Made by a program: the position numbers and the translations under genes. Under the pieces are notes generated by a model. The model saw nothing but the letters and a program-made list of their open reading frames with translations. It made no database searches and was not told the origin of the DNA. Shown piece by piece: positions 30,087 to 58,402 of a stretch of 64,000 bases of DNA. The DNA is from Myxococcota bacterium (GTDB taxonomy: Bacteria > Myxococcota_A > UBA9160 > UBA4427), in the NCBI GenBank assembly GCA_029268645.1, contig JAQWNI010000248.1:4346-68345 (forward strand). The letters run 5' to 3'. The number at the start of each line of letters is the position of its first letter. Within the stretch, counting starts at the first letter, position 1.

Positions 30087-32105
30087 TTAGCTCGCGAAAG
30101 CCAGGACGACGACGGCGACAAGTGTTCCGGCCCAACCCCATAAGACCACGAGCCCCGCTCGCCCCGCAACTCGTTCAACGCACCGCTTAGCCACGCCGAG
30201 GCCTTGTGCGCAACAAAGGGCTAGTGGCAGCGTGCCGGCGAGCACGTAGGGGGCCTTCGCCTGGGCGTAGAAGGGAAGCCGTAGCGTGATGAAGAAGAGC
30301 GAGAAGCTGAGGACGAAGATCACGCTGGTGAGCAGGGAAAGAATCAATTTGCGCCGTGGGTCCGGGTTGCGAAATGACTCGATCAGAAAAGAAAAGAATC
30401 CGCCGAACATCGCCGCTGTTGCCGGAAGGGCCAGGGCGGGAATCAAGGTCATGAAGTCGTAACGCCAAAACGAATGGCGGGTGGAAACTCGAATCATCCC
30501 GGCGACGAGCCCGTCTGCCCAGAGCGTCGAGTAGATGCCATCCCAAAAAGAAACGAAGCCCGAAAAGAATGGATAGGAGAGGGACTCGCCGAATCTCAGG
30601 TAACTGTCCGCGGAGCGGAAGCCGGGAAGCATCCACCAGGTGGGCTTCCCTGGAACGTCGAGGTTCCAAACGACGGGGTCGCCAAAGAGAATCCAGTTGC
30701 GGACGTAGAACCAGCCCGCGATCGAGGCGGCAACAAGCATCAGGCCGCCACCGGCGGCCAGGACCCTATGAATCGGTTGTCGGTCAACGATCCAGAGCCG
30801 GCTGCTCGCTAATCCGGCAACCAGAGGAGCCAGGGCCAGGCTTGTGAATTTCGTCAGTAGACCGAGGCCGAGAGTCACGCCAAGAAGAAGAGATCGCCGC
30901 CAGACCCAAGCGGGCGCTAGGATCAGTTCCGTTGCTAAGACCAGTGATGCGCTTACCCAGGTCGCATGAAGAGACTCGTTTGAGATGTAAGTCGACATGT
31001 AGAGATTCATTGGGAGAAGTCCGGCGACCGCGATCGCGACAGCCGGGCGAAGCGCTTCTTTAGGCCAAAGCCTTCGGGCCGCTCGGCCCGTTAGCCAGAC
31101 TGTGGTCCAGCCCGATGCCATGGGGATCAGCCTGTATACGCCCGCCGCCCATTCACTCGCTGGGGAGACCCCTGTGATTCGGGAAGCCAACGCAACGAGT
31201 GTGTGAAAGGCCGGAGGGTGGTAGGTCGAGAACCCGTAGTCTGCTGTCGGAGGCTTTCCCTCTTGGACGAGGTAGTCGATATAGGCCAAGTGGGCGTGAG
31301 CATCAAAACCCAGTGGGAGAGGCATTCGGACAGCCTTGTAGAAGTAGAGAACGGCCCAGACCGTGCTGACGAAGAAGAGGGTGATCGTCGGAGCGTGACG
31401 GCGAACGCCCTCAGGCGCCCGGCCCATAATCCCCCAGGCTAGGCCAGCCGAAACCACGAAGAGTCCAAACAGAGCCGGCCCGTGAGTCTGGGCGACTCGC
31501 CATGCGGGAGGCACTTGGCGCGATTCCGGGTGGATTTGGGAATCCTGGGCGAAAACTGCCGGCCGCGGAGAACCACGGGGGCCGACCACGGTCCAATCGC
31601 GACCCGTCGAAAGAGCTTCGGTCCCGGGACCGCTCAGAGAGAGCGCAAGCAATGGAGGCCCATGGACATTGCGCACCGTGGCCCGGAGTTCATTTCGACC
31701 GGGTCGGAGCCAACGGCCGACATCGATCTCGAACCCCTGCTTCCAGTTGTCGCCGTTTGCAGGGGCGACTTCAATCTTCCGTCCGTTGATTTCCAGTTCG
31801 AGGGTGCGCAAGGCGCGACCACGGAGCAGCGTCTCATTTGACGGTTGGGTCGATTCGAAACGCCGGACGAATGTGAAGCTCGGTGGGCTTTCGGGGAGGA
31901 CCGCAATTAAATCGGCGGTTGGTCGCCAAGGGGAGGTGATCCATTCGCCGGTGTCTGCGCGGGTAATAAAGGGCACCTCGTCGTCGATGAGCGTGGCCCG
32001 GCCGAGGGCAAGGGCGGCGCCTGCAAGCATCAGGCCCCAGGCGATCCATTGGATACGCAGCAAGGTTAATGTGCGCAAAGGCGGGGCGGGAGTGGCCCGA
32101 TTCAT
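30087..32105 (-). CDS. GT-C fold (ArnT/PMT-like) glycosyltransferase with N-terminal galactose-binding-like domain
   Basis: GFDAHAH, YHPPAFH, ISNESL, GLLTKFTS, multiple TMs; ATGA overlap with the upstream GT2. Confidence 0.75.
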   Translation of the reverse strand: MNRATPAPPLRTLTLLRIQWIAWGLMLAGAALALGRATLIDDEVPFITRADTGEWITSPWRPTADLIAVLPESPPSFTFVRRFESTQPSNETLLRGRALRTLELEINGRKIEVAPANGDNWKQGFEIDVGRWLRPGRNELRATVRNVHGPPLLALSLSGPGTEALSTGRDWTVVGPRGSPRPAVFAQDSQIHPESRQVPPAWRVAQTHGPALFGLFVVSAGLAWGIMGRAPEGVRRHAPTITLFFVSTVWAVLYFYKAVRMPLPLGFDAHAHLAYIDYLVQEGKPPTADYGFSTYHPPAFHTLVALASRITGVSPASEWAAGVYRLIPMASGWTTVWLTGRAARRLWPKEALRPAVAIAVAGLLPMNLYMSTYISNESLHATWVSASLVLATELILAPAWVWRRSLLLGVTLGLGLLTKFTSLALAPLVAGLASSRLWIVDRQPIHRVLAAGGGLMLVAASIAGWFYVRNWILFGDPVVWNLDVPGKPTWWMLPGFRSADSYLRFGESLSYPFFSGFVSFWDGIYSTLWADGLVAGMIRVSTRHSFWRYDFMTLIPALALPATAAMFGGFFSFLIESFRNPDPRRKLILSLLTSVIFVLSFSLFFITLRLPFYAQAKAPYVLAGTLPLALCCAQGLGVAKRCVERVAGRAGLVVLWGWAGTLVAVVVLAFAS

Positions 32106-32893
32106 TCCTTGGCCGTACCCGTCTCGGAAGGCCATCGTGTGGCGCGCGCGCCGAGGTATCGCCGATGAAGCTTGCGCAATGCGATGGAGGCGCGTAGGAA
32201 ATCAAGAGCACGGACCTTGGACCCCCCGACGTCGACCCATGAATCCAGGGGGAATTCGTAGAGCACATTTTCGATCGGCGGTCGTCCATCCCAACGGCTG
32301 GCAGCCATTCGGCGCGCGAGAATCTCGACGTCAAAAATCCAGCCGCCTTCGAAGGGCTCTGTGAAAAGTTTTCTATTCGAATCGATATTCCGAAAGAGCT
32401 TGGCACCGCATTGTGTGTCGTAGACGGCCAGCCCCAAGGTCACGGAAGCGATCGTTGCAAAGACCCGACCCAGATAGTGACGTACTCGGTTCCGTTCAAT
32501 CCTTCGTCCAACCAATTGGACACGGGCGCCAAACACCATTTCGATTTCGGCGTTCTCATTGAGGATTCGACGTAGTGGTTGAATTTGATGAAGCGGTGCA
32601 GCGAGGTCTGCATCGAAATACCCAGCATTCTGGCACCCCAATTCGAATGCTCGCTGCATGCCCCGGCGGACGGCTTCGGCTTTTCCGAGGTTGATTTCCT
32701 GGTCAATGACGGTGATTCGATGTGGATTCTTTTCCTCGATCGAGCGAAGCACGGCAAGCGTCCCATCCCGGCTTCCATCATTGACGAGGATGAAGTCGGT
32801 TTGGGCATCCTGCTGTAAATGTGCCATGAAGGCTTCTGCGGGAAGCCGGTGGGCTTCGTTGAAGCAGGGAACGACGATGAAGGTCTCGGGCAT
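32102..32893 (-). CDS. GT2, polyprenyl-phosphate sugar synthase-like (ALG5/DPG type)
   Basis: VVPCFNE, VNDGSRD, NLGKAEAV, DADL, DTQCGAKLF, WIFDVE. Confidence 0.9.
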   Translation of the reverse strand: MPETFIVVPCFNEAHRLPAEAFMAHLQQDAQTDFILVNDGSRDGTLAVLRSIEEKNPHRITVIDQEINLGKAEAVRRGMQRAFELGCQNAGYFDADLAAPLHQIQPLRRILNENAEIEMVFGARVQLVGRRIERNRVRHYLGRVFATIASVTLGLAVYDTQCGAKLFRNIDSNRKLFTEPFEGGWIFDVEILARRMAASRWDGRPPIENVLYEFPLDSWVDVGGSKVRALDFLRASIALRKLHRRYLGARATRWPSETGTAKE

Positions 32894-33009
32894 GCGACTG
32901 TCAGTCTACCCCGACCCTGGAGATCTGCCTGGGGGGCCTTTATCTTGCTGGGGCATCATCGGACTGGCCGATGCACCGTGTCGTCTGCGATGGGCGGGGG
33001 AAGGGCGAT

Positions 33010-34725
33010 GTGACCGATTCGGGGAAGTTGGACGAGCAGGGGGCCGAAGGAGGGCGTCGAGGCGTTTTCTTGGTGTTCTTCGTGCTTATGGCGCTGCTCT
33101 ATGGCGTTCTGCAGTTGGGTTCTCTTGGTCATCCTCTCTTTTGGCAGGACGAGGGCGAGACGGCCATGTTCGGTCGTCGGATTCTGGAATTTGGATTCCC
33201 TAAAGTGCACGGATCCGAAGGCGTTGTTTATGGAATGGGGATCCCCCTCGAGGTCGGGACCGATTTAGATCAGGATTCTTACCGAGGAAGCCTTTGGGGG
33301 CAGTACTACGCCGCCGCACTGGGCGTAGCCTGGGCAGACGGCTCAGACGACGTGTATGAGAAGACAGCGCGGGTGCGGTTGCCCTTTGTTTTGGCTGGGC
33401 TGCTGGGCTTGCTGGCTCTGCTCTCCTCCTTCTGGAAGGAGCTAGCGGCTCGTTCTGGGCATGCTCTGCCCGCTGCCACGGTTTTTATGGCTCTGTTGTG
33501 TGCGTCGACTTCCCTTCAATTGCATTTGCGGGAGGCCCGCTACTACGGCCTCGTTGTTGGGGCCGTTGGGCTTGCAGTTGCCTGTGTGCGTTCCTTGTTG
33601 GTTTGCCGGGGTGGGGTTGGGGCGTGGCTTAGGTCGCTCGCACTTGGCGGCATTCTGGTGGGTCTTCTCAATGTTTTCTATCCGGCGGCGCTTGCGGTGA
33701 TGGGTTGGATCGTCCTCGAAACGTGGATCGGTGGGCTCAAAGCGCGTCGGCAGGGGCTTGCGTGGGGTTTGCGATCCACTTGGCTCCTGATGCCAGTCGG
33801 CCTAGCGCTCTTCGCGGCGATTTACTTGGCCGTGACCTTCGATGTGTTGACGGTTTCTCGCGCCTTGGCTTCCCGTTGGCCCTTCGGTCCGAAGCTCTAT
33901 CTAGAAAACCTGGTTCATCTCGGGATCTTTCTTTTTCGTTGGGAATTCTTGGGTCTCCTGGTCGTAGTTGAGGCTCTTCTTTTTTGGCTGGGCCGGCGCG
34001 GCCCCCGGCTCAAAGTAGACCGGCGGCCTGCATGGTCGCTTCTTCGGCTGGCGGGCTGGTTGGGCGGCGTGGGGGCGTTCAATCCCGTTTTCTTTGAACG
34101 CTATTTCGTCGCGCTGAGCCCTTTGATCTCTCTCTCGTTGGTTCTAGAGGGGGAAGTTTTGATCGAACGCCTCGGGTTACGCAATGCCTCGGGGAGAACT
34201 CTGCGAACAGGGGTTCTAGGGACGGTATTGGGGGTCGCGGTGCTGACTCTCTGGCTGCGCACGGGAGAGATCCTTGGGCATGCGGATGAAGTCTTGAATC
34301 CGGTCTCGGGGCCCATCGATCATGTGGTTGAGGTGATTGGGACCGAGGAGACAAGCCCCCAGGAAGTCATCATCGCAACCAACTATGAAGCCGAGCCCCT
34401 GATGTTCTACCTCGGGAGTCGCGTCCTCGGCCGATTCGAATCCGGTTCCTTGGAAGACCTCGAGCGTGCCGGTCGGGAGCAGCCGGGCTGGGTAATCCCT
34501 CGAACGGCCCAGCCCCGGGGCCTGGAAGCGGTACGCCGCTATCTCCTACGGGGCGATTTTGAAGCCCTAAGGCTTCCTGTGGCCGACATGCCCTACAACC
34601 ACTTGCCCGAACTTTACTCTGGTCGCGTTCTGAGCGAGACCCATTGGTTCGAGTCGCCAGCTCCGAGTTCGGGGAGACCGAATTTGATCATTTATCGGCG
34701 GTCGCAGGTCCGTGACCTGAATTAG
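33010..34725 (+). CDS. GT-C fold membrane glycosyltransferase
   Basis: TM1 followed by FWQDEGET, ARVRLPF, REARYYGL, FERYF, periplasmic C-terminal domain. Confidence 0.7.
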   Translation: MTDSGKLDEQGAEGGRRGVFLVFFVLMALLYGVLQLGSLGHPLFWQDEGETAMFGRRILEFGFPKVHGSEGVVYGMGIPLEVGTDLDQDSYRGSLWGQYYAAALGVAWADGSDDVYEKTARVRLPFVLAGLLGLLALLSSFWKELAARSGHALPAATVFMALLCASTSLQLHLREARYYGLVVGAVGLAVACVRSLLVCRGGVGAWLRSLALGGILVGLLNVFYPAALAVMGWIVLETWIGGLKARRQGLAWGLRSTWLLMPVGLALFAAIYLAVTFDVLTVSRALASRWPFGPKLYLENLVHLGIFLFRWEFLGLLVVVEALLFWLGRRGPRLKVDRRPAWSLLRLAGWLGGVGAFNPVFFERYFVALSPLISLSLVLEGEVLIERLGLRNASGRTLRTGVLGTVLGVAVLTLWLRTGEILGHADEVLNPVSGPIDHVVEVIGTEETSPQEVIIATNYEAEPLMFYLGSRVLGRFESGSLEDLERAGREQPGWVIPRTAQPRGLEAVRRYLLRGDFEALRLPVADMPYNHLPELYSGRVLSETHWFESPAPSSGRPNLIIYRRSQVRDLN

Positions 34726-34737: not shown

Positions 34738-35724
34738 TTATCCGCGAAGCCAGAGATCCTGGGCGGCGCTCTTCCAGCCATAGCCGTAGCGAGCGTATCG
34801 CCCACTTGACCACTCTCGGAATACGAGGGGCAGGCGTTTCCAAAAAAAATTGGGCATGGCGGAGCGGCTCCCGGCGTGATCTCGCTTTTCTTCGATCAGT
34901 CGCCGGATCGGACTTCCAGCCGGGAGACCGGGGGCATGATCCTGAAGGCGTTCGAGGGCGAGGCTGAAAAAATCAAATTCCTCTTTGAAGGCGTTTCTGG
35001 CGACTTGCGCTCGGGCTTGGCGAAATTGATCGACTAGGCCCCGCTGCCGAATTCCAATTTGATTCTGGCCGTGGAGGCGGTAGCGAATCAAGGGATCATT
35101 GACGAGCGCGCAGGGCGCCCGGCAGGCAATGATGAACGCAACCCAGGCATCATGGACGCTGGGAAGGTCGGGGAAAGGAAAGAGGATATCGCGAAAATCA
35201 GCACGGAAGGCGAGGGTGGTGCCGGCTGCGACGACCCGGCGAGCAAAAACGGCAGGGGCCTCTCCTTGGCGGACTCGCTCTTGATCGGACGCGTCGAAAA
35301 AGAGTGCATCCCAAAGATCGTCCCCGATGGGAGTCAGGGTTTCGTCTACGATCTCGGCGTTCGAGAAGGCGAGTCCGACATCGGGCCGATTTTCGAAGTT
35401 TTTTGCGAGGGTTTCGATTTTGTGGGTCGCCCAGAGGTCATCTTGGTCTGCAAGAAATATCAGAGAACCTCGGCACATCGAAATGGCTCGTTCAAAATTG
35501 GCGGTGGATCCCTTCCGCTCTTGGGTCCCCTCAAGTCTGACCGGGAACGGAGCGCTCTGGGCGAAGGTCTCGATTTCTCGAACCGTCTGGTCTGTTGAGG
35601 CATCATCGCAGATGACCAGTTCGTCCGGCAGTCGCGTCTGTTCCGCAAGGCTCTGAAGCTGCTGCTGGACAAACGCGCTGCCTTCGCAGGTGGCCATGGC
35701 AATGGAGATTTTTTCGCGAGGCAT
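34738..35724 (-). CDS. GT2 glycosyltransferase (WfgS/rhamnosyltransferase-like)
   Basis: ICDDASTD, ADQDDLW, HDAW, YRLHGQNQIG. Confidence 0.9.
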   Translation of the reverse strand: MPREKISIAMATCEGSAFVQQQLQSLAEQTRLPDELVICDDASTDQTVREIETFAQSAPFPVRLEGTQERKGSTANFERAISMCRGSLIFLADQDDLWATHKIETLAKNFENRPDVGLAFSNAEIVDETLTPIGDDLWDALFFDASDQERVRQGEAPAVFARRVVAAGTTLAFRADFRDILFPFPDLPSVHDAWVAFIIACRAPCALVNDPLIRYRLHGQNQIGIRQRGLVDQFRQARAQVARNAFKEEFDFFSLALERLQDHAPGLPAGSPIRRLIEEKRDHAGSRSAMPNFFWKRLPLVFREWSSGRYARYGYGWKSAAQDLWLRG

Positions 35725-35875
35725 CCGGTCTCCACTCAATCAGCTGGGCGGGCCCATGGGCCACCAACGGCTACGGATCTGCCCGCTCATCTGCTTGCCC
35801 TCCAGTGTATCGCGGGGAATGGATTGCGGGGCACTGAGAATGGATTGGAATCTGTTGCAGAGGTATCTTGAGCAG

Positions 35876-37360
35876 ATGGGCTCCCCGAAACTCTTCGATC
35901 GATGGCCGTCGACCGCGTGGACTCGGGGGCATCGGAGAGTCTTTGATCGCCGCAACTTCACCCTGGGGCCTCCGGCCAAGCTGCTTCCGGGGCTTGGTCT
36001 CGTCGTGCTTTCGATGGTTCTCGCCGCCTGCGGTCCAGATTCTCAGACCCAGCGAATTCAGGATCCAAGGCCTAACGTCTTGTTTATTTCTGTGGATACG
36101 ATTCGGGCGGATCACCTTTCGGCCTATGGCTATGGCCGAGAGACATCGCCTTTTTTGAGCGGTTTGGCCCGCGACGGGGTTCAAGTGCAGGCCGCCTACG
36201 CCCCTTCTGCGACAACGGGCCCAACCCATGCCAGTGTGTTCACCGCGCAGCCTCCGATGGCTCACGGGGTTCGAAAAAACGGTCAGCCTCTGCCGGAAAA
36301 CGAGAAGACCTTGGCCGAGCGCCTTTCGGAAATCGGTTTCGAAACCGGTGCCGTGGTGAGTTCCTATGTACTGAGCGATCGCTTTGGCTATGGCCAAGGC
36401 TTCGATTCTTTCGACGATGATTTCTCCAAATCGAAGACCCCAGTGGGCTCTACTCTTTGGGAAGGCGAAACGATTGAGGAGCGTTTTTACGGTCGCGCGG
36501 ATGACACGACGGATCGTGCTCTTCGCTGGTTGGACGAAAGATCAGATGAGGCCGCACCGTTTTTTCTATTTGTTCACTACTACGATCCGCACGATCCGTA
36601 TGTTCCGCCGGAGAATTTTACGCCACCGTTTGCCCCCGGACGGAAAGAGTCCCTCAAACTCAATCGAACCATTTACCTCTATGATTGGTTGATTGCCTAT
36701 ACGGACCAACAAATCGGACGGCTTCTCGAAGGCTTGGATCTGGCGGGCTTGGCGGAAGACACACTGGTGATCGTGACGGGTGATCATGGAGAGGGCCTCA
36801 TGACTCACGGCCATATGTTTCATGGCGTCCACGTCTACGAGGAAGCCGTAAAAGTCCCCTTGATTCTTCGCTGGCCAGGGCATCTTCCCCAAGGTTTGAA
36901 AGTAGAGGGACCCTTTCCACTGGTTGAGTTGGCGCCTGCGCTTCTTGAGTTGATTGGTGATTCACCGAACGGGCCTTTGGCCTCGGCGGGGAGTGCGAGT
37001 CGCTTGTTGGGGAGAGGGGAATCGGCCGATGAGGAGATTCCGATCTTTCTTTACCGCCGACACTATGCGGATCCTAAGGAAGGCGATGGCCCCACCGCGC
37101 CTCGGGGAGAAAAGTTTGGTGTCCGCCTCGGCGGGTGGAAGTTGATCGTGGGGCCGGCTGAGGGCACCTTGGAACTCTATGGCTTGGTCGATGACCCCCT
37201 GGAGCAGATTAACCTCGCTTCGGAAGAGCCGGAGCGGGTGGCAAGGCTGTCGGCCTTGATCGACGCCTGGCGCCTTGAGCACGAAAGAAATGTCATTGAA
37301 CCGGCCCCGGTTCTTCAGCAGGATCGGGAGCGTCTGAAGGCGCTGGGGTACGTCGAGTGA
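35876..37360 (+). CDS. Sulfatase/alkaline-phosphatase-superfamily lipoprotein
   Basis: Lipobox LAAC, PNVLFISVDTIRAD, TTGPTHAS, DPHDPY, DHGE, LKALGY; start uncertain. Confidence 0.85.
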   Translation: MGSPKLFDRWPSTAWTRGHRRVFDRRNFTLGPPAKLLPGLGLVVLSMVLAACGPDSQTQRIQDPRPNVLFISVDTIRADHLSAYGYGRETSPFLSGLARDGVQVQAAYAPSATTGPTHASVFTAQPPMAHGVRKNGQPLPENEKTLAERLSEIGFETGAVVSSYVLSDRFGYGQGFDSFDDDFSKSKTPVGSTLWEGETIEERFYGRADDTTDRALRWLDERSDEAAPFFLFVHYYDPHDPYVPPENFTPPFAPGRKESLKLNRTIYLYDWLIAYTDQQIGRLLEGLDLAGLAEDTLVIVTGDHGEGLMTHGHMFHGVHVYEEAVKVPLILRWPGHLPQGLKVEGPFPLVELAPALLELIGDSPNGPLASAGSASRLLGRGESADEEIPIFLYRRHYADPKEGDGPTAPRGEKFGVRLGGWKLIVGPAEGTLELYGLVDDPLEQINLASEEPERVARLSALIDAWRLEHERNVIEPAPVLQQDRERLKALGYVE

Positions 37361-38808: not shown

Positions 38809-38871
38809 CACAGGGAAAAGCCCCGTGCTTTTTGTGTCTCTACGCAATGATCCAATGATAGACTCCGGGGT

Positions 38872-39594
38872 ATGTATCGAGGCCTTTCGGTCATTGCCAT
38901 TGCCCCCGTTTTAGACGAGGAAGTCAAAGTGGGCGACGTGGTGCGTCGGACACCTCGTCCCTTAGTTGATGCCGTCCTCATCGTTGATGATGGCTCAACG
39001 GACCGGTCCGCAGAGGTGGCTCGGAGCTTGGGCGCTCGTGTCCATTCGATGGGCCGGGTGGCCGGCGTGGGGGCCGCGATCCGTGCAGGTTATCGTATCG
39101 CGGTGGAGGAAGGATTCGACGTTGCCGTCGTGATGGCCGGCAACAATAAAGATGCGCCGGAGGAGATTCCGATTCTGTTGGATCCGATCGTCGAGGGAAA
39201 AGCTGATTTCGTGCAAGGTTCGCGCTTCTTGAAGAAGGATCGCAATTTTGGACCGATGCCGCTCTATCGTCGCTGGGCGACCCGGATCCATCCTCTGCTC
39301 TTTTCTTGGGTTGCAGGGCGTCGGGTTTCCGAATCAACCAACGGATTTCGAGCCATTCGTAGAGAAGTTCTGACCGATCCTCGGCTCGATTTGGATCAGG
39401 ACTGGCTGGATGAATATGAACTTGAACCCTACCTCTATATCCGAACGATTCGATTGAATTACCGTACCGCCGAGGTGCCCGTAACTAAGATTTACCCTCC
39501 GCGGAGCCTTGGCCAAACTAAGATGAAGCCGATCATTGGGTGGTGGTCTATGCTGCGCCCTCTCGTGTTCCTCGGTCTGCGGATGAGGAAATAG
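38872..39594 (+). CDS. GT2, polyprenol-monophosphate sugar synthase-like (DPM1 type)
   Basis: VDDGSTD, GVGAAIRAG, FVQGSRF, STNGFRA; DxD position reads AGN. Confidence 0.85.
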   Translation: MYRGLSVIAIAPVLDEEVKVGDVVRRTPRPLVDAVLIVDDGSTDRSAEVARSLGARVHSMGRVAGVGAAIRAGYRIAVEEGFDVAVVMAGNNKDAPEEIPILLDPIVEGKADFVQGSRFLKKDRNFGPMPLYRRWATRIHPLLFSWVAGRRVSESTNGFRAIRREVLTDPRLDLDQDWLDEYELEPYLYIRTIRLNYRTAEVPVTKIYPPRSLGQTKMKPIIGWWSMLRPLVFLGLRMRK

Positions 39595-39598
39595 AACG

Positions 39599-41739: not shown

Positions 41740-41742
41740 ACT

Positions 41743-42309: not shown

Positions 42310-42336
42310 GTCCGCGCATCGGGAGGGCCTCGCCTC

Positions 42337-50057: not shown

Positions 50058-52577
50058 TCAGGAGGTCGAAGCAGACTTTTCGTGCGCTGGGCGCGTTTGA
50101 TCGAGGCGGTTGAGTGATTGCGTAGCGGGGGGGAAGCCCGGGGTGACTCTGAGGGCTTCCGAAAGGGCCTGTCGGGCCTCGTCAGGCCGTTCGAGTTCGA
50201 TGAGCGCGAGGCCCAGGTGGTACCAGTACTCTGCGCGAGGCGGATCCGCCTCCCCGGTCACGAATCGGAACTGCCAGTAAGCCGCTTCGTAGGCCCCGGA
50301 TCGGAGGTACACATAGCCGAGGGTATCGGCTGTGGTGAGGTTTCTATCCGATCCATCGACGGCTAGGCGGGCGAGTTCAAGCGCGCGTTCGAAGTCCTCC
50401 CCTTCAAGGGCCAGGAGGTGGGCGAGGTCGTTTTTTAAAATGATCAACTCGCTGCCCTCAAGGAGAGCCTGCTCATACAGCGTACGAGCATGTTCGAGTT
50501 GGTCGTTTCGCAAATAAAGGTGGGCCAGGAGAGCAAGGTCGTCAGGGCTGATTTCGCCCCGCGCCTTTTGCGATTCCAATGCTTGAATGGCCGCCCTGCG
50601 CCGGAGGGGCGTCGCAGAGACCTCGATGATGAGCGAGTAGGCCTCGTCCCGGTGCCTCGGATTGAGGGAGGCTGCTTTTTGGGCATCCTTGATGGCGTCA
50701 TCGGTTCGTCCGAGGGCTTTCCAAATCTCAGCCCGAACCAGGTAGAGGCCCCCAGCGCGCGGTCTACGCTGGATGGCTCGTGTGACTCGAGCAACCGCCG
50801 CCGCATTTCGCCCGCGGCCCAGGTCGTCCCGGCTCAGAACTTCTAGGAGCTCGACGTTCTCGGGATAACGCTGGTAGACGGAAGCCAGCAGCGTCCGAAC
50901 CTTTTCTTGACGGCTGGGGTTTTGCAATTCCCAACGTGCGAGGGCGAGCGCCGCCTGTGGCTCGGGATTGGGGCCGTCCAGCAGGCCTTCGAGAATTCGG
51001 CGCCCGTGCAATTCTCCTTTCGACTCGTAGTATCCCCGCGCCATCAAGAGTCGCTCGTCGATGGTCAGGTTCTCTTTTTCGGCAATTTCTCCAAATGAAA
51101 GAGCCGCTTCCCGCCCCCGACCGATTTCAAGCAGGACGCGGGCTTTGATTCGCAGGTTGGGTGTCGTTCGACCGTCGAGCTCGATGGCTTTTTCAATGGC
51201 CGACAGAGCCTTTTCATGAGCCGCGCTCTGGTGTTCGATCTGGGCGATCAATCGCCATGCTTGACTGGTAGGAGCCTCTCGTCTAATCAGCGCTTGGAGG
51301 GTTACAAGGGCTTCCTGTAGGTGCCGCTCCGCGATCTGTTGCTCGGCGATCAGTAGGGTGGTGGAGGCGCTGTCCGGGTAGGCTTTTTGAACCTTCGATA
51401 AGGTTCGCGCCGAATCGGCATAGCGCCCTTGGCCGATCTGAACGTGAAAGACGGCGGTCCAGAGCGGCTCGCTTTCGCCTCCCCGCTCGACCTGATCATT
51501 CAAGTAGGCGACGGCTGCGACCGGGTTTCCGCTTCGGGCGAGGTGTCTCGCGTAGGCAATTTGAACGTCGGTTCCGTGCCCGAGCGTTTTAAACATGTCT
51601 TCAAAGAGCTGATCTTTCGCCTCCGAATTGCCCTGCGCACTGAGGATCGTGGCGAGCCGGGTCCACGTCGCGAGCTGTTGAGGGTTGTTTCGGATCGATT
51701 CTTCGAGGGCGAGTTTTTCGAGTTCCAAGTCGCGGGTACTTCTGCCGTAGGCGGCGGCGGCTTCGAGGGCACGCATCTTTTCGTCGGGGGATCCCTCGGC
51801 GATGGCGATCGAGATCAAATCCCCGTAGGCCCTGCGGGCTTCGGGCGTTCCGGAAGCCCAAGCCTTGAAAGCCCGGGCACGTCCGAGCGCGGCTCCCACT
51901 CGGCGGGTCCCACCTTTTTGGAGATAACGATTGTATGCCGCAAGGATCGCGTTCAGTGGCTCTGACCGTTGTAACGAACTCGCGGAGAGGAGCGTGAGAT
52001 TGCGTGACTGGATCAGGAGCAATTCGGCGAGGGCCCACTCGATATCGGGATCGTCGGGTTGGATGCGCCGAGCTTGTTCAATGATTCGGTGCGCCTCGCG
52101 TGTCTTTCCACTCGACAACAACAAGCGGGCTTGGACGAGGAGGGCTTCAGCCTGTTGGGGTTCCGTTTCGAGGATCGCGTTGATCAGCGAGGTCGCTTGC
52201 TCGGGATCCGAATCGGCGAGCGTGCCTGCGTAGTCGATGGCGACTCGCAGGTCCGTGGGGTCTAAGGCATAGGCTTCTTTGTAGTATTCGCGAGCACTCG
52301 TTTGGTCGCCCGCTTTGGAAAATGTTTCCGCGATTTTGACGGTGAGGGCCCGATCTTCGGGGTGAATCTGGGACGCGGCCCGCAGTTCCAGTACGGCCTC
52401 CGCGTAGCGGCCCTCCTCGATCAGCACGTTTGCCCGGGAGGCGTGCTGATCGGCCCGGTTTGCTCCCGACCCGCATGCGATTGCGAAAGCCAAGAGGGCT
52501 GTGAAGAGGATTGGCTGCCGCCGACTCGGCAACTGGCTTCGACCCGTCGCGGTGTTCGATGTGTCCAGTCGGTTCAC
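50058..52577 (-). CDS. TPR-repeat lipoprotein (PrsT-like)
   Basis: Lipobox-like AIAC, TPR repeats throughout, NDLA...ADTLGYVY...YHLG. Confidence 0.8.
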   Translation of the reverse strand: MNRLDTSNTATGRSQLPSRRQPILFTALLAFAIACGSGANRADQHASRANVLIEEGRYAEAVLELRAASQIHPEDRALTVKIAETFSKAGDQTSAREYYKEAYALDPTDLRVAIDYAGTLADSDPEQATSLINAILETEPQQAEALLVQARLLLSSGKTREAHRIIEQARRIQPDDPDIEWALAELLLIQSRNLTLLSASSLQRSEPLNAILAAYNRYLQKGGTRRVGAALGRARAFKAWASGTPEARRAYGDLISIAIAEGSPDEKMRALEAAAAYGRSTRDLELEKLALEESIRNNPQQLATWTRLATILSAQGNSEAKDQLFEDMFKTLGHGTDVQIAYARHLARSGNPVAAVAYLNDQVERGGESEPLWTAVFHVQIGQGRYADSARTLSKVQKAYPDSASTTLLIAEQQIAERHLQEALVTLQALIRREAPTSQAWRLIAQIEHQSAAHEKALSAIEKAIELDGRTTPNLRIKARVLLEIGRGREAALSFGEIAEKENLTIDERLLMARGYYESKGELHGRRILEGLLDGPNPEPQAALALARWELQNPSRQEKVRTLLASVYQRYPENVELLEVLSRDDLGRGRNAAAVARVTRAIQRRPRAGGLYLVRAEIWKALGRTDDAIKDAQKAASLNPRHRDEAYSLIIEVSATPLRRRAAIQALESQKARGEISPDDLALLAHLYLRNDQLEHARTLYEQALLEGSELIILKNDLAHLLALEGEDFERALELARLAVDGSDRNLTTADTLGYVYLRSGAYEAAYWQFRFVTGEADPPRAEYWYHLGLALIELERPDEARQALSEALRVTPGFPPATQSLNRLDQTRPAHEKSASTS

Positions 52578-52585: not shown

Positions 52586-55018
52586 TTAAGAACCTTGTAG
52601 GCTGGCGAGTTGAGCACGCGCTGCGGCGGCTTCAGGAAAGTTCGGTTGGCCGAGGGCCCGCGTGAGAGCGGCCCGCGCGCCTTCGGAATCTCCCGCCGCA
52701 GCTCGTGCGAGACCGAGGCGGTAGGCGAGAGACGGAGACTCTGGATAAGAATCCAGGGCTTTTTTGAGGGTGTTGGTCGCCTCGGGGATTTCACCGCGTT
52801 GAATGTAGACATAGCCGAGGGTGTCCAGGGTTTCCGGACTGGTTTGGAAGCGGACCGCTTGCTTGGCCAGTTCTAAAGCGCCGTCAAGTTGCTGGTTCGA
52901 ACTGGCGAGGATCCAGGCGAGGTCGTTGTTTGCGGCGGCGTGGGTCGGGTCCCGGTCTAGTGCGGCCTGCAGGAGCGTTGCCGCTGCCTCTTGGTTGCCC
53001 TGCATCAAGCGTGTCTGGGCGGCCAAATAAAGCGGCTCGGCGCTCGTATCGTCGGCATTGGCGGCGCGTTCGAAGATCGCAATGGCCCCATCGAGGTCAC
53101 CATCGTTTCTTTTCATCGTGCCAATGGCCTCTAGAGAAGGCGCGAACTCGGCATCCAGAGCCAAGGCTTGTTCGAATGCTTCAACCGCCTGGGCCCGCTG
53201 ACCGCTGAGAAGTAGAACTCTCCCCTTGAGATCGATGAGGGTTGGGGATTCCGGGTTCGGTCGAATCGCCTGATCGACAAGGGAAAGCGCACGGCGAGTC
53301 TGACCCAGCGACAAGTAGTCGATGGCCGCAGAACGGATCGCATCGACATTTTCGGGATCGGTCAAATCGAGACCGCTTTCGGTAATAACGACGAGCGCAG
53401 CTTCGGCACCGTCGTTTTCTCTTCGGATTTTTGCGAATTCGACGTACGCGGCGGGATGATGCGAATCCTTGACGCGAAGGTCGTTTAACAGTGACTCAGC
53501 CTTTGAATCGTCGCCGAGGATTTGGGACGATCGAGCGGCGATGACATGAGCGGTCGGCTCGACATAGGGTCGTTTTCGGATGTGACGCTCCGCGAACTGT
53601 TGCGCGAGAATGAGGTCGCCCTGGGAAAAGTGAATGATCGCTAGGCGGAGGGCCGCATCGGTTTCTTCCTCTCCGACGCGCACCGCTTCTCGGTACTCGG
53701 AGAGCGCCCGTTTTTGGTCCCCCAGTTCTTCAGCGGCCATGCCTGCCAAATAACGTCCGCCGGAATTGTTGGGCCATAGGCGGAGTCCAGCGTCGAAGCT
53801 CTCGAGTGCGCTTTGGGCTTGCCCTTGTTTGAGGAGGATCGCGCCGCGGAGCAGGTGCTTATAGGCGGGCTCGTCGAGGCTATCGGCGATTTGCTCTGCC
53901 CGTTCAAAGTTGCCTTCCTCAATGAGCATGTCGGCGAGGGCAAACCGCATGGGTGCCGATACGTTACGGGTTCTCCCCATGGCCTCTTCGAGTGCCTGCC
54001 TCGCTGAGCCCGGATCGCCGCTTTTTCGATTAAAGCTCGCCAACATGCGCCAAGCTTCGGGTGTGTCGAAGAGCTCAACACTTTCCGTTAAGACGGCGCG
54101 AGCCTCGTCGACGCGCCCCTGCCCGTAGAGCAGGTCGGCGTGTTTGGCTCGGAGGCCAAGATCCTCGGGGGTGGTCTCGACGGCTTGGGCCCAGACCTCA
54201 ATCGCTCGATCCGGTTGACCTGTCTCGACGTAGTAATCCGAGGCCCATTGTTGGAGAAATGGGTGGGCGGGGTAGTCACTCAAGCACTGCTGAAAGGTCT
54301 CCTGCGCCTGCTCCTGTTTCTTTCGGCCACTATAGAAATTGGCCAGGGCCGCACACTTTCGGGCGGCGTCGTCCTGGTTATCCGCAAGGGCCGCTTCTTC
54401 CGACATGGCTTGAAAAACGTTCTCTGCTTCGTCGAGTCGATCGAGGTCAATCAGCGCGCTTCCCTTGAGAACCGTGGCGTGATGACTCGTGGGGTCGGTC
54501 TCCAAAATAGTTTCGGCGTCTTCCAGCGCCTTTTCCGGCTTACCGGCGACGAGGTAGGACTTGCCCCGCGTGAACAGGGCGAGCGAGTTTTCGGGTTCGA
54601 CCGCCAGAACTTTTGTTGAGGCCCGTATGGCTTCCTCGTTGGCGCCATTCGTGGCGAGCGTGGTGGCCAGCACCAAGCCAGCGACCACCGCGTAGTCGTC
54701 GTTTTCGGCGGCCTTTTGGAGGGGCCATACGGCCAGACTGGGCCGCCCTGTTTGCCGTAAGGCGATGCCGAGTAAATAGTTCGCTTCCGGGTTCTGGGGC
54801 TCGTCGGCCAACACTTGCCGGAGTGGGGCAATGGAGGGGTCGAACTGGCCGGCTTGATGGAGCGACCGGACTTCCTCGAGTTGGGCCTGGGAATTGCCGC
54901 TGCATCCCACGGCGCTCAAGATTCCGACTCCCAGCAGAGCCAGGGCGAGTGCCGTGAGGTAAGAACCGACTCCCCCCTTCGGAAGATGGCCGAGGTTAAA
55001 TAGGTCTTTCAGATTCAT
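52586..55018 (-). CDS. TPR-repeat lipoprotein (PrsT-like)
   Basis: Lipobox-like AVGC, TPR repeats, NNDLAW...LDTLGYVY...YRLG. Confidence 0.82.
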   Translation of the reverse strand: MNLKDLFNLGHLPKGGVGSYLTALALALLGVGILSAVGCSGNSQAQLEEVRSLHQAGQFDPSIAPLRQVLADEPQNPEANYLLGIALRQTGRPSLAVWPLQKAAENDDYAVVAGLVLATTLATNGANEEAIRASTKVLAVEPENSLALFTRGKSYLVAGKPEKALEDAETILETDPTSHHATVLKGSALIDLDRLDEAENVFQAMSEEAALADNQDDAARKCAALANFYSGRKKQEQAQETFQQCLSDYPAHPFLQQWASDYYVETGQPDRAIEVWAQAVETTPEDLGLRAKHADLLYGQGRVDEARAVLTESVELFDTPEAWRMLASFNRKSGDPGSARQALEEAMGRTRNVSAPMRFALADMLIEEGNFERAEQIADSLDEPAYKHLLRGAILLKQGQAQSALESFDAGLRLWPNNSGGRYLAGMAAEELGDQKRALSEYREAVRVGEEETDAALRLAIIHFSQGDLILAQQFAERHIRKRPYVEPTAHVIAARSSQILGDDSKAESLLNDLRVKDSHHPAAYVEFAKIRRENDGAEAALVVITESGLDLTDPENVDAIRSAAIDYLSLGQTRRALSLVDQAIRPNPESPTLIDLKGRVLLLSGQRAQAVEAFEQALALDAEFAPSLEAIGTMKRNDGDLDGAIAIFERAANADDTSAEPLYLAAQTRLMQGNQEAAATLLQAALDRDPTHAAANNDLAWILASSNQQLDGALELAKQAVRFQTSPETLDTLGYVYIQRGEIPEATNTLKKALDSYPESPSLAYRLGLARAAAGDSEGARAALTRALGQPNFPEAAAARAQLASLQGS

Positions 55019-55655: not shown

Positions 55656-56651
55656 ATGTTACGAAAATTACTCGGTCTCGTTGCTGCCGCTGCGATGGTG
55701 AGTGCGTTCGCTTCGAACGCCTGGGCCGGAGTCTTCCTCCCGCTCAGCAGTGATCTCAGCGTCAACCTCGGTGGCAACCCGACCATTAGCGTCCCCGGCA
55801 CCTACAACGGGACTGGCTGGGCCACGCTAAGCAACAATGGCTCTGAGCACGATCTGTCTGTTGGTGCGGGCATCTGGAAGGGCTCGGGGATCAATGCCGG
55901 GAACGGCACGGGAACCGCGCTTCTGACGGGTGTGGCGCTGCTCGATAACTTGACTCTCTCTGTGACCAACCAGGCCGGTAACTTGACCGCGAGCTTCAGC
56001 ACCGCGAATCCGGTGGGCGGTGGCTTGACCGGGACCGCAACTACGCCCAGTTCTGCCACGCTCTGCCCCTCGGGTTGCTTGGGCGGCCAGCAGGGACTCA
56101 GCGGCAACGTGTTCCTGTACGCATTGGGCGGCAGCTTGCCCTTCCCGCTGAACCCCTCAGCGACTGTGGGTGTAGGCATCGGTGGGACCACTACCGTCAT
56201 GCTGGGTACGGTCCCGATTGTTGTGACCAACGCTCCGTGGATCACCGGCAAGGTGCGAATCACCTCCTTGACCACCAACGTGATCCAGGTTGTGCGCAAC
56301 GCAACCGCCATAACGGGTGTCGGTGTCACGCTGGCTCCGGAAGGCACGGAAGACGTCCGAACGTTCACCACGGGTCTCGGCTGGCGCTCAACGGCGAGCA
56401 CTAACCCGATCGAGACGCGCGGTACGGTGACCGTCGGCGGGACGAACATCCTGGCCTCGGCTTCCGCCGGTGGTGCGGTCACTTTGATCTCGCCGCAGCG
56501 CATCAACACTGGTCCGATCGGCCTGGGCAACATCCCGGCGGTTTGGCGCGAACAGTTCCTGTTCGTGCCCGAGCCCGGAACTGTCCTGCTGCTGGTATCG
56601 GGTGCTGCTGGCCTCGTGGTCATCGGCCGGAACCGGATGAAGCGCAAGTAG
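55656..56651 (+). CDS. PEP-CTERM sorting-domain surface protein
   Basis: Sec signal ending AWA, Thr/Gly/Ser-rich body, C-terminal VPEPG, TM helix, then RNRMKRK. Confidence 0.92.
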   Translation: MLRKLLGLVAAAAMVSAFASNAWAGVFLPLSSDLSVNLGGNPTISVPGTYNGTGWATLSNNGSEHDLSVGAGIWKGSGINAGNGTGTALLTGVALLDNLTLSVTNQAGNLTASFSTANPVGGGLTGTATTPSSATLCPSGCLGGQQGLSGNVFLYALGGSLPFPLNPSATVGVGIGGTTTVMLGTVPIVVTNAPWITGKVRITSLTTNVIQVVRNATAITGVGVTLAPEGTEDVRTFTTGLGWRSTASTNPIETRGTVTVGGTNILASASAGGAVTLISPQRINTGPIGLGNIPAVWREQFLFVPEPGTVLLLVSGAAGLVVIGRNRMKRK

Positions 56652-56680: not shown

Positions 56681-56719
56681 AAGGCGGCCATCCCGATCCG
56701 GGGTGGCCGCCTTTTTTTT
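56681..56719 (+). terminator. Rho-independent terminator
   Basis: GGCGGCCATCCCG-ATC-CGGGGTGGCCGCC followed by T8. Confidence 0.92.
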
Positions 56720-56920: not shown

Positions 56921-58402
56921 GTGTTCAGTCGGCTGTTTAATTCGCCCTGGTTCTTCTTTGGAGTCGCGGCTCTGCTGATCTGTGTGGCCGTCGCTTCGCA
57001 GTTCCAAAGGGCGGACGTTGAGGCTCCGCCTGGTGACGTGGAGGATGTTCTCTCTCTGAAGGAGCATAAGCCCTACAACGTCGTTTTTATCCTCATCGAT
57101 ACTCTACGTGCAGACCGCCTGTCCGCGTATGGCTACGACCGAGAGACGAGCCCCAATTTGGAAGCTTTGGCCCAGCGCGGGGTCCGTTTTGCTCAGGTTG
57201 AAAGTCAAAGCAGCTGGACGAAGGCCTCAATGGCCTCATTGTGGACCGGGCTGTACCCCCAGCGCACGGGCGTGATTCGATTTCCGCACGCCCTACCCGA
57301 AGATGCCGTGATGCCCGCCGAGATTTTTCAAGAGGCCGGTTACCGGACCGGCGGCGTGTGGCGCAATGGTTGGGTGGCCAACAATTTTGGCTTCAGCCAG
57401 GGATTTGATCTGTACCTTCGACCGACTCAGAGTAAGTCCAGAGCAGATATGCGTCGCTTCGCACCCTCGTCATTCTCCCTATCTGGAACCGATCTCGATG
57501 TCACGATATCAGCATCTGAATTTGTTATGGGCACGAGCGGCGAACCGTTTCTGCTCTATCTGCACTACATGGATGTCCACCAATACGTGTATTCCGATGT
57601 GTCTCCGGTTTATGGAACAGACATCTCTGACATTTACGACAGCTCGATCCATTGGACAGACCAAAATGTCGGACTCGTGGTTGAAATGCTTCGCGTTCGC
57701 GGATTGTTGGACGACACGTGGATCATCGTTGCCTCAGATCACGGTGAGGCCTTCTTTGAACACGGTGGGGAAGGACATGCAAGAAATCTATATAGCGAAG
57801 TGCAGCAGGTTCCTCTGATTATCGCGCCTCCGGTCTCGCTGAGCCCAGGGCTGGTCGTCGAAGAGCGAGTCGCCAACGTCGATATTTGGCCGACTGTGCT
57901 CGATTTGCTGGGACTTCCGCCCTTGCCAGATGCACAAGGCCAGTCTTTGGTGCCTTTGATCGAGGCCGCAGCCGGTTTGAGAGAAGTCCCTGAAGAGCTG
58001 GTTGAGCGGCCTCTCTTTGCACAGCTCGATCGGACTTGGGGGCGCGCCACCAGTGATCCTGACCCAATGGTTTCAGTCATGAAGAAAGACTTCAAAATGC
58101 TTCATCGGTTCAGCGAGCCCGACCGTAATGAGCTCTATGACCGGTCGGTGGACCCAAGCGAGCAGACGAATCTGGCCGGTTCGGAGCCGAAGGTTCAGGC
58201 GGAGCTGGCTGATGAAATCAAACAATTCGCCAAGCAGGGAGTCGTTTGGGACGAGTCGTTCGAAGTTGAAATCGATGAGTTGAATGCAGCCCAGCTTCGG
58301 GCCTTGGGCTACGTCCTTCCGGCGGCCCACCAAGCGGTCGAAGGGGCCAAGCCGGTGGCGCCTGGTGTGGCGCGGAAGCCGAAGGCTTGGGGAGAAAACT
58401 GA
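56921..58402 (+). CDS. Sulfatase/alkaline-phosphatase-superfamily protein, N-terminally anchored
   Basis: IDTLRAD, SWTKASMAS, DVH, DHGE, LRALGY. Confidence 0.85.
   Translation: MFSRLFNSPWFFFGVAALLICVAVASQFQRADVEAPPGDVEDVLSLKEHKPYNVVFILIDTLRADRLSAYGYDRETSPNLEALAQRGVRFAQVESQSSWTKASMASLWTGLYPQRTGVIRFPHALPEDAVMPAEIFQEAGYRTGGVWRNGWVANNFGFSQGFDLYLRPTQSKSRADMRRFAPSSFSLSGTDLDVTISASEFVMGTSGEPFLLYLHYMDVHQYVYSDVSPVYGTDISDIYDSSIHWTDQNVGLVVEMLRVRGLLDDTWIIVASDHGEAFFEHGGEGHARNLYSEVQQVPLIIAPPVSLSPGLVVEERVANVDIWPTVLDLLGLPPLPDAQGQSLVPLIEAAAGLREVPEELVERPLFAQLDRTWGRATSDPDPMVSVMKKDFKMLHRFSEPDRNELYDRSVDPSEQTNLAGSEPKVQAELADEIKQFAKQGVVWDESFEVEIDELNAAQLRALGYVLPAAHQAVEGAKPVAPGVARKPKAWGEN

Follow-up and report, generated by a model that had tools for sequence, protein, structure and literature searches.

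We analyzed a 64,000-nucleotide window of DNA (contig C248, positions 4346-68345) from the metagenome-assembled genome (MAG) of a bacterium labelled Myxococcota (G000; 4.08 Mb, 284 contigs, 83% complete). Positions 30087-58402 of this window hold a glycosyltransferase-rich locus. Its core, which includes genes for PEP-CTERM proteins, is kept together despite differing gene order and flanks in four families that belong to a single order of uncultured marine bacteria with the label Myxococcota. At the center of the locus is an STT3-like enzyme that retains the catalytic residues of oligosaccharyltransferases and lacks the WWDYG motif of their Ser/Thr pocket. Our findings suggest that the clustered PEP-CTERM cargo is glycosylated in the periplasm by a lipid-carrier-dependent system whose acceptor recognition is non-canonical, a reading to which we give about an even chance of being right. 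A first-pass annotation, made from the sequence alone, had proposed a surface-protein glycosylation system here; the open reading frames (ORFs) that it placed in the locus are real and their family assignments hold. They encode five GT-C-fold enzymes, four GT2 glycosyltransferases, a dehydrogenase/aminotransferase/acetyltransferase trio, a methyltransferase, three sulfatase-fold proteins, two tetratricopeptide repeat (TPR) lipoproteins and one PEP-CTERM protein. Each of the five GT-C enzymes could be classified by Pfam or NCBIfam models, by matches of its orthologues, or by an AlphaFold2 model searched with Foldseek.

STT3-family N-glycosylation is considered universal in eukaryotes and archaea and rare in bacteria. 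To our knowledge, every characterized member of the STT3 family reads N-X-S/T through a WWDYG pocket, and the post-translational fate of PEP-CTERM proteins has been an open question since 2006. Our literature searches turned up neither a bacterial STT3-like enzyme that lacks WWDYG nor a bacterial oligosaccharyltransferase linked to PEP-CTERM. The locus draws attention to a sizeable bacterial family that has the catalytic residues without the Ser/Thr pocket and is tied by genome organization to PEP-CTERM proteins.

Conservation of the cluster and its PEP-CTERM proteins

The core of the locus comprises the genes for the STT3-like enzyme, a PMT_2-like GT-C, a GT-C protein with C-terminal TPRs, a 399-aa GT2 with an accompanying methyltransferase, the two TPR lipoproteins, the sulfatase-fold proteins and one to five PEP-CTERM proteins. 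Genes for sugar synthesis vary between genomes. Twelve genome loci with the STT3-like gene were found, 11 of which show the same arrangement as far as their contig ends; the twelfth consists of an N-terminal piece only. An orthologue of the PEP-CTERM protein is adjacent in all five genomes tested (44-66% identical, one match per genome). Synteny among such close relatives is weak evidence, because the housekeeping flanks are syntenic as well and the genome holds at least 36 PEP-CTERM matches.

More distant loci were found in families f1 (genome G313), f7 (G113), f4 (G318 and G173) and f5 (G465). The STT3-like proteins of G313 and G113 are 43% and 31% identical to the window copy, respectively. 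Both genomes keep the STT3-like, PMT_2-like and GT-C+TPR genes, both TPR lipoproteins and three sulfatase-fold genes, together with one (G313) or five (G113) PEP-CTERM genes, and in both the sugar-synthesis genes are replaced. In G318/G173 and G465, most of the core set occurs in altered order, with no uvrD or Ddl gene in the fetched stretch. With tblastn, the aminosugar trio had no match in the fetched stretches of G313, G113, G318 and G465, and the PMT_2-like gene, which is present in G313, G113 and G465, had none in G318 or G173. PEP-CTERM genes occur at the loci of all four families, the short G173 contig excepted, and the genes for the 810-aa TPR lipoprotein, the 839-aa TPR lipoprotein and the STT3-like enzyme are co-directional in G318 and G173, with gaps of 45-152 nt. 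The clustering noticed in the first-pass annotation is thus kept in relatives, including its link to PEP-CTERM across rearrangement in four families. Constant transferases and cargo combined with varying sugar genes are what one would expect of a transferase whose glycan specificity is relaxed. Several loci carry PEP-CTERM genes in tandem, five in G113 (L041 and L042, ~34.6-38.9 kb), three in G318 and two in G465, and the cargo seems to expand within the locus.

Co-occurrence was sampled in 151 genomes for the cargo protein and in 401 genomes of the phylum for the STT3-like enzyme, with counts uncorrected for kinship. Within family f1, 15 genomes have an STT3 match scoring 560 bits or more, and the PEP-CTERM orthologue occurs in every one of them, though only as a partial match in G278. 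In genus g4, the PEP-CTERM protein was found in none of 16 genomes, and no STT3 match exceeded 350 bits in the 10 genomes scanned. PEP-CTERM ORFs were present at all five loci with the TPR pair that were long enough, but at only two of eight loci that carry an STT3 paralogue without the TPR pair.

The PEP-CTERM protein of the window (55656-56651, plus strand; ~331 aa), the candidate acceptor or cargo, has a signal peptide and starts at the ATG at 55656, not 55536. Its tail, VPEPGTVLLLVSGAAGLVVIGRNRMKRK, consists of VPEPG, a hydrophobic stretch and a basic end. TIGR02595 scored 17.7 bits, above its cut-off of 16, while PF07589 scored 17.8 bits on the protein, below its cut-off of 20.7, and 23.1 bits in the genome scan. 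Ser and Thr together make up 21% of the residues, and a Cys pair is conserved. Sequon richness, an earlier argument for N-glycosylation, was not borne out: the protein has six NxS/T in 328 aa, a number attained or exceeded in 24.6% of 2000 shuffles (mean 4.27, sd 1.84). Eight orthologues and paralogues have two to five NxS/T each, none of them enriched, and a stretch of 20 columns contains one or more NxS/T in every one of the nine proteins. One Asn is invariant in all nine, in the context T-N-x-[S/T/A]-G, with Ser or Thr at +2 in five and Ala in four. Such a pattern might be tolerable for an enzyme that, as its residues predict, has no Ser/Thr pocket.

The exosortases of the genome are located elsewhere, as the first-pass annotation had supposed, with six PF09721 matches on other contigs. 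Two exosortase ORFs were typed, scoring 155.8 and 92.4 bits with 8TM_EpsH versus a cut-off of 105.55; neither reaches the cut-off of a named subtype. No sigma-54-type motif was found upstream of the cargo gene; one match lies far away, and 96 of 100 shuffles gave at least one. Complex prediction for the GT-C+TPR protein with the mature PEP-CTERM protein gave a score of 0.00 versus a mark of 0.32, which speaks neither for nor against binding. The repertoire of the genome is unusually large for 4.08 Mb, with 16 PMT_2, at least 36 PEP-CTERM and six exosortase matches.

An STT3-like enzyme without the WWDYG motif

The STT3/AglB-like GT-C of the core (42337-44640, plus strand; 767 aa) matches PF02516 (41.9 bits, cut-off 24.5) and AglB_L1 (55.9 bits, cut-off 23.6), both above the gathering score. 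Its sole NCBIfam match is TIGR04154, the archaeosortase-A-associated oligosaccharyltransferase, at 241.8 bits, below the cut-off of 450. In an alignment to Archaeoglobus fulgidus AglB-L (3WAJ), D46, D158-H159-H160, E343 and R413 fall on the catalytic Asp D47, D161-H163 (DHH), the Glu of TIAE and the Arg. The aligned stretches, window protein first, read PPADPQYHLRR/GGNDPWYYYR, GNADHH/GFNDHH, TGEQ/TIAE and QRRY/QNRF. Among 236 full-length STT3-like members, drawn from the top matches of two database searches, D46 is conserved in 231, DHH in 228, E343 in 235 and R413 in 235.

The WWDYG position reads HPNLG in the window protein and H(A/P)NLG in its relatives, and WWD[YWNF]G was found nowhere in any of the 236 members. 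At that position, paralogues from the phylum that are more distant have xW(S/G/P/N)xGH, with one Trp at most. K618 of the A. fulgidus enzyme, the Lys of the DK motif, aligns in sequence to T600, a position with Ser or Thr in 160 of the 236 members and Lys in two. A passage of PMC3703281 states that the DK/MI motif is hard to place without a structure, and another describes the Ser/Thr pocket as present in all oligosaccharyltransferases. The STT3-like enzyme is predicted to keep the residues for metal and donor binding and for amide activation, without the WWDYG Ser/Thr pocket. Judging by these residues, it would work like an STT3-family transferase, yet it falls outside what defines a canonical oligosaccharyltransferase. 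Because WWDYG is present in none of the 236 members, we do not regard it as a canonical N-X-S/T enzyme. The priming of N-sites at N-X-S/T that had been proposed earlier is therefore unlikely, since the enzyme has no WWDYG pocket for a +2 Ser/Thr of the kind found in characterized oligosaccharyltransferases. If it glycosylates Asn at all, it would not be expected to read N-X-S/T.

The family is large, with 849 clusters (50% identity) at E<=1e-30 in a profile search and a match in 74 of the 401 genomes of the phylum. Relatives are annotated as 'STT3 domain-containing protein' or 'glycosyltransferase family 39 protein' or carry an automatic Stt3 label, and none is characterized.

Proposed pathway, alternative explanations and known systems

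From the observed gene content, folds, motif states and conserved clustering, we infer each chemical step and the acceptor as follows. The dehydrogenase, aminotransferase and acetyltransferase would convert UDP-GlcNAc to a 2,3-diacetamido sugar. At the membrane's inner face, AglJ/DPM1-like GT2s would charge polyprenyl phosphate with sugars, which soluble GT2s would extend. After flipping, the STT3-like enzyme would transfer the lipid-linked glycan, and the PMT_2-like enzymes, the GT-C+TPR protein and the 584-aa GT-C could draw on polyprenyl-phosphate donors to attach single sugars. Holding or presenting the substrate may fall to the two large TPR lipoproteins, phospho-groups may be added or removed by the three Thr-nucleophile sulfatase-fold enzymes, and an exosortase encoded elsewhere would sort the product. 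That a GT-C enzyme carries a TPR domain, as do the protein O-mannosyltransferases TMTC1-4, counts for protein glycosylation. Of the earlier proposal, a lipid-carrier GT-C pathway outside the cytoplasm with archaeal affinity is supported, with monophosphate-linked donors and a glycoprotein surface layer as putative elements, while its sequon-enriched cargo and canonical N-X-S/T priming are not. The archaeal affinity is seen in the nearest named models, which are those of an AglJ-like GT2, an archaeal-type UDP-GlcNAc 3-dehydrogenase and AglB (TIGR04154), all scoring below cut-offs. A bolder version, which we hold to be rather improbable, is that the STT3-like enzyme founds a large bacterial oligosaccharyltransferase branch that has discarded the Ser/Thr pocket and carries out sequon-free glycosylation of exosortase cargo, for example at the invariant Asn, helped by the TPR lipoproteins.

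Several points weigh against periplasmic glycosylation of the PEP-CTERM cargo. The flanks HflX-glmU-glmS-uvrD and Ddl-PP-loop-C45-AlgX-MBOAT are syntenic too in close relatives, kin are not independent, very few events of gain or loss underlie the co-occurrence, and with at least 36 PEP-CTERM matches in the genome adjacency in a single genome could be chance. The sequons of the PEP-CTERM protein are not enriched, and no exosortase was found in the window or the fetched loci (0.84 Mb in total, a figure that includes the four exosortase loci excluded from the search). The acceptor of an STT3-like enzyme without the peptide-recognition motif could be a glycan or a lipid, and the source organism is known as an uncultured MAG that is 83% complete. 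In addition, PMT_2/ArnT-type GT-Cs, Wbp-type sugars and Thr-type enzymes of the alkaline-phosphatase superfamily are typical of lipopolysaccharide (LPS) and envelope-glycan modification, and an AlgX-like/MBOAT pair lies just downstream. The locus might decorate LPS, exopolysaccharide or a periplasmic glycan in the manner of Arn, Gtr, Ept or Opg, with the PEP-CTERM and TPR genes as a neighboring module. Such a role would suit a genome rich in PMT_2-type enzymes (16 matches), the weak matches of the sulfatase-fold proteins to EptA, MCR, LtaS, OpgB and YejM models, the nearby AlgX-like/MBOAT pair, and the STT3-like paralogue loci without the TPR pair, which carry sulfatase-fold and GT2_399-like neighbors and have PEP-CTERM ORFs in two of eight cases. 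Points against it are that the PEP-CTERM and both TPR genes stay with the STT3-like and GT-C+TPR genes (and the PMT_2-like gene where present) after rearrangement in four families, the operon-like order of the TPR810, TPR839 and STT3 genes in G318 and G173, and the absence of Wzx, Wzy, Wzz, WaaL and ABC-exporter families among the scanned ORFs of the locus, and we judge it a minority possibility.

We rate at a similar level the possibility that the locus synthesizes an anchor, in which case it would build an amino-sugar lipid-linked glycan or glycolipid, an exosortase would join the cleaved C-terminus of the PEP-CTERM protein to it, and the GT-Cs would extend the glycan rather than the protein. 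[quoted passage not shown] At our locus, a WbpB/WbpE/WbpD-like trio lies directly upstream of the STT3-like gene, genes for Asn-synthase/PP-loop-like, C45 acyltransferase-like and ATP-grasp Ddl proteins lie directly downstream of the locus and are syntenic, and the STT3-like enzyme has no peptide Ser/Thr pocket. Against this, the trio stands outside the conserved core, having had no tblastn match in the G313, G113, G318 and G465 stretches, no exosortase is linked to the locus, the residues with which oligosaccharyltransferases activate the acceptor amide are conserved in the STT3-like enzyme, and the TPR-bearing GT-C suggests a protein acceptor. Much less probable still is canonical AglB-type N-glycosylation at N-X-S/T of the PEP-CTERM protein, as in the first-pass annotation. 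The STT3 and AglB_L1 matches above Pfam cut-offs, the archaeosortase-associated AglB as best NCBIfam model, and the occurrence of at least one NxS/T in a 20-column stretch of nine out of nine orthologues and paralogues speak for it. They are set against the replacement of WWDYG by H(A/P)NLG (0/236 with WWD[YWNF]G), a DK-Lys position that is Ser or Thr in 160 of 236 members and Lys in two, sequons that are not enriched, a TIGR04154 score of 241.8 bits versus a cut-off of 450, and a pocket said, in that passage of PMC3703281, to be present in all oligosaccharyltransferases.

Comparison with known systems indicates that the locus is a variant of lipid-linked glycosylation rather than a new category; no description of it was found in the literature. 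It resembles the archaeal Agl system (TIGR04154; A. fulgidus AglB-L, 3WAJ) in its STT3 fold, AglB_L1 peripheral domain and archaeal-type DHH second motif, in having AglJ/Dol-P-hexose-synthase-like GT2s in place of a PglC/WecA initiator, in its putative diacetamido-sugar pathway, and in its genomic tie to cargo of exosortase/archaeosortase-family sorting. The extra GT-Cs could add sugars after transfer, and AglS has this role in archaeal Agl. In contrast to that system, the host is bacterial, WWDYG is missing, no Lys or Ile of a DK/MI motif is recognizable and TIGR04154 stays below its cut-off. The locus also stands apart in combining five GT-Cs with two giant TPR lipoproteins and with three sulfatase-fold proteins of the Thr type, and its cargo is PEP-CTERM, not PGF-CTERM. 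In the Campylobacter Pgl system, PglB is a single-subunit periplasmic STT3-family enzyme that is encoded with acetamido-sugar genes, has WWDYG and an MI motif and reads D/E-X-N-X-S/T, and the Pgl locus carries the PglC initiator and the PglK flippase. The locus shares an STT3-family enzyme and putative acetamido-sugar genes with Pgl, and PglB structures were among the Foldseek matches, but neither the WWDYG and MI motifs in the STT3-like enzyme nor PglC and PglK genes in the locus were found.

A polyprenyl-phosphate sugar synthase GT2 combined with GT-Cs that act outside the membrane is also a feature of PMT/TMTC and GtrB/CsbB-type systems (compare PMC7801869 and PMC8035078). The 552-aa protein, with a GT-C membrane domain followed by TPRs, is built like TMTC1-4. 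Unlike TMTC, it matches no TMTC, DUF1736 or PMT Pfam model, and no GtrA-type flippase was recognized; unlike all of these systems, the locus adds an STT3-like enzyme and PEP-CTERM cargo. In common with the XrtA/PEP-CTERM exopolysaccharide system of Haft et al. (2006; PMC1569441), who define PrsT, the locus has cargo near glycosyltransferases and PrsT-like TPR lipoproteins, with exosortases in the genome. It departs from that system in that neither TPR protein attains the PrsT cut-off, exosortases are absent from the locus and its vicinity and neither of the two that were typed reaches an XrtA-type cut-off, no sigma-54-like motif stands upstream of the cargo gene and no exopolysaccharide polymerization or export genes were found (PrsK and PrsR were not searched for). 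T9SS attachment to A-LPS (PMC7468200) shares a C-terminal sorting signal on the cargo and, putatively, a WbpB/E/D-like 2,3-diamino sugar pathway; the sorting system differs, and the aminosugar genes of our locus are outside the conserved core.

If our preferred reading is true, the locus would be a concrete candidate for how exosortase cargo is modified and could offer a new acceptor specificity for glyco-engineering. It would also point to an evolutionary parallel between archaeosortases and exosortases. Under the bolder version alone, bacteria would have an equivalent of the pairing of archaeosortase with AglB, and the STT3-like enzyme would be an oligosaccharyltransferase that by nature needs no sequon. 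If one of the alternatives is right, what remains would be an envelope-glycan locus with five GT-Cs, not described before, in abundant uncultured marine bacteria.

Remaining enzymes and surroundings of the locus

Five GT-C genes lie within 20 kb here versus 16 PMT_2 matches in the whole 4.08 Mb genome, a clustering above chance. In the core, the PMT_2-like gene (44612-46306, minus strand; 565 codons) matches PMT_2 over 44612-46036 above the gathering score (29.9 bits, cut-off 26.1). The GT-C+TPR protein (48390-50048, plus; 552 aa) has a TMTC-like architecture. It matched no Pfam family at E<=0.01 and no PDB sequence. Its AlphaFold2 model (pLDDT 79.9, pTM 0.80) has GT-C enzymes as best Foldseek matches, namely yeast STT3 (E 1.4e-3), ArnT, PglB and Pmt4 (TMq 0.45), and TPR proteins matched its C-terminus. 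A FISDD..HYV..N motif is invariant in its family, and nine of ten members match TPR_19, with only weak TPR matches at E<=1. Two further GT-Cs belong to the variable part. One (30087-32135, minus; 682 aa) has an N-terminal periplasmic domain of ~210 aa followed by a PMT_2-like GT-C domain, with ~9 hydrophobic segments and the motifs FDAHAHLAYIDYL and YHPPAFH. It has no Pfam match itself; its orthologues match PMT_2 in two of seven cases (best E 2.2e-6) and DUF2142 in one of seven, and PMT_2 is found in 27-38% of the members of its nearest ESM Atlas clusters. The other (32971-34725, plus; 584 aa) has no Pfam family, and a Pfam search on individual members of its family gave nothing useful. It was assigned by its AlphaFold2 model (pLDDT 70.7, pTM 0.77), whose Foldseek matches in the PDB are all GT-C at ranks 1-38, including STT3, ALG9/12, ArnT, AftA and PglB; a WQDEGETAMFG motif is invariant in its family. 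For the three unassigned membrane-protein families, a profile search against PDB sequences returned nothing below E 0.5, and hhalign between families gave E-values of 0.033 (A2 versus A4), 0.33 (A3 versus A4) and 0.15 (A6 versus A4), all on thin alignments.

Three polyprenyl-phosphate sugar synthase-like GT2s and one soluble GT2 had been proposed, and two of the three and the soluble enzyme could be sustained. The 240-aa GT2 (38872-39594, plus) is AglJ/Dol-P-hexose-synthase/PpgS-like and a candidate polyprenyl-phosphate sugar synthase; TIGR04182 (86.3 bits), NF041391 (66 bits) and NF058614 (56.9 bits) each score below cut-off, and relatives are 76-82% identical. The 399-aa GT2 of the core (46908-48107, minus) is an AglJ/Dol-P-hexose-synthase-like candidate for the same function, with PF00535 at 82.6 bits, the AglJ-type models TIGR04182 (105.1 bits) and NF041391 (91.6 bits) below cut-off, ~four C-terminal hydrophobic segments and relatives that are 67-92% identical. 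The soluble 333-aa GT2 (34738-35739, minus; PF00535, 70 bits) is TuaG/EpsE/PglI-like at low scores and is present in five of the nine close loci that cover its position. The last, a 263-aa GT2 of the variable part (32102-32893, minus; PF00535, 59.2 bits), has no transmembrane segment and is PpgS-like only weakly (36 bits).

The Wbp-like trio matched general families, with the specific models NF040723 and TIGR03570 below cut-off. It consists of a GFO/IDH/MocA oxidoreductase resembling UDP-GlcNAc 3-dehydrogenase (39599-40627, plus; PF01408 95.4 bits, NF040723 159.2 versus a cut-off of 450), a DegT/DnrJ/EryC1 sugar aminotransferase (40624-41739, plus; PF01041 365.4 bits) and a NeuD/PglB/VioB-like hexapeptide-repeat sugar N-acetyltransferase (41743-42309, plus; PF00132 91.5 bits, TIGR03570 92.3 versus 160.8 bits), the gene for which is missing from three of 11 close loci. 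These genes form part of a co-directional seven-gene run (35690-44640) of two sulfatase-fold genes (Sulf556 and Sulf483), the 240-aa GT2, the trio and the STT3-like gene, with overlaps or gaps of at most 63 nt. The class I S-adenosylmethionine-dependent methyltransferase of the core (46303-47133, minus; PF08241 46.4 bits) travels with the 399-aa GT2 and the PMT_2-like gene, a trio also found in G465. Its ORF as listed overlaps the GT2 gene and begins with ~90 residues of low complexity; translation probably starts later. Between the 399-aa GT2 and GT-C+TPR genes, locus L009 has an extra gene (15834-16886), and L005, L008, L010 and L011 have an equivalent gap of ~1.2 kb, which the window does not. 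The L009 product (350 aa) has a GxxGxxG start of the short-chain dehydrogenase/reductase type and, judged by eye, resembles a UDP-hexose 4-epimerase.

The three sulfatase-fold proteins are of the Thr type, as noted before, with Thr at the Cys/Ser position (TGPTH, TAPAH and TKASM). The formylglycine motif C/S-x-P-x-R is gone in all three, though they score 147-168 bits with Pfam Sulfatase, and they match EptA, MCR, LtaS, OpgB and YejM models weakly. The first (35690-37360, plus; PF00884 167.6 bits, PF01663 54 bits), a lipoprotein of the alkaline-phosphatase superfamily with TGPTH, is aligned by its relatives from about residue 100, and its true start is probably near the predicted lipobox LAAC. 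The second (37357-38808, plus; PF00884 147 bits) is a lipoprotein with TAPAH and the lipobox LNAC. The third (56921-58402, plus; PF00884 160.4 bits), membrane-anchored with TKASM, is encoded by a core gene; it aligns to 5g2v at residue level, and in relatives it is 46-70% identical and stands beside the PEP-CTERM gene. STT3-like paralogues without WWDYG (G078, G088, G193 and G233; L033-L048) also adjoin a sulfatase-fold gene, a GT2_399-like gene or both, without the TPR pair, and the two matches in G078, sulfatase-fold and STT3-like, share ~50 nt on the same strand. The pairing of STT3-like and Thr-type sulfatase-fold genes is recurrent. The two TPR proteins are lipoproteins, as had been noted, with lipoboxes AIAC in the 839-aa protein (50058-52577, minus) and AVGC in the 810-aa protein (52586-55018, minus). 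Both are PrsT-like core proteins, scoring 163.9 and 255.4 bits, respectively, with TIGR02917 versus a cut-off of 312.2.

The glmU-glmS genes adjoin the locus on its upstream side, with uvrD in between. Among 27 ORFs scanned in 23997-63930, no family match was found for Wzx, Wzy, Wzz, Wza or Wzc or for a PglC/WecA-type initiator, in agreement with the first-pass annotation. The scanned ORFs of the locus gave no match to WaaL or ABC-exporter families either, and neither a GtrA-type flippase nor another flippase for the proposed pathway was identified there. Two Bac_transf genes and three MraY/WecA-family genes lie on other contigs of the genome. Directly downstream, window positions 58428-63930 encode an N-terminally extended ATP-grasp ligase of the Ddl type, proteins that resemble PP-loop/Asn-synthase and C45 acyltransferase, an SGNH protein like AlgX and an MBOAT protein, a set that is syntenic in relatives and could make or transfer an acyl or aminoacyl decoration of a glycan. 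Positions 1-23794 are occupied by ordinary genes to which no link from the locus was drawn: lipid and fatty-acid genes (several acyl-CoA dehydrogenases, a thiolase, an enoyl-CoA hydratase, a PlsB-like acyltransferase, FabH and a phasin), two ABC exporters and HflX. A foreign origin of the locus by composition was rejected, as GC content is even (0.55-0.63) across the whole window, with no break at the locus. Records with close homologues are labelled Myxococcota, Deltaproteobacteria or 'bacterium', with three third-party records labelled Spirochaetaceae/Spirochaetales. Near-identical contigs were found in public sequencing runs; among four compared, three are labelled marine metagenome.

The window copy of the PMT_2-like core gene (44612-46306) has an in-frame TAG at 46046-46048. 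Nine of nine relatives have a Lys codon (AAG or AAA) at this site, and two public runs from different studies, X1 and X4, read AAG, at depths of only ~5 and ~4; these two runs alone cover the site, which X2 and X3 do not reach. Five codons upstream, X1 and X4 also have TAT where the window has TTT, and with these readings the family motif AAYLGSLKSQ is regained, so that two A/T differences 14 bases apart (46046-46062) part the window from the contigs of both runs and from the family consensus. Selenocysteine or stop-codon recoding was rejected, given that the codon is TAG, the relatives have Lys codons and the public contigs read AAG. The TAG probably reflects either a local misassembly of the MAG or a defective variant that is rare. 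Since two public runs and nine relatives read Lys, the PMT_2-like gene is most likely intact in nature.

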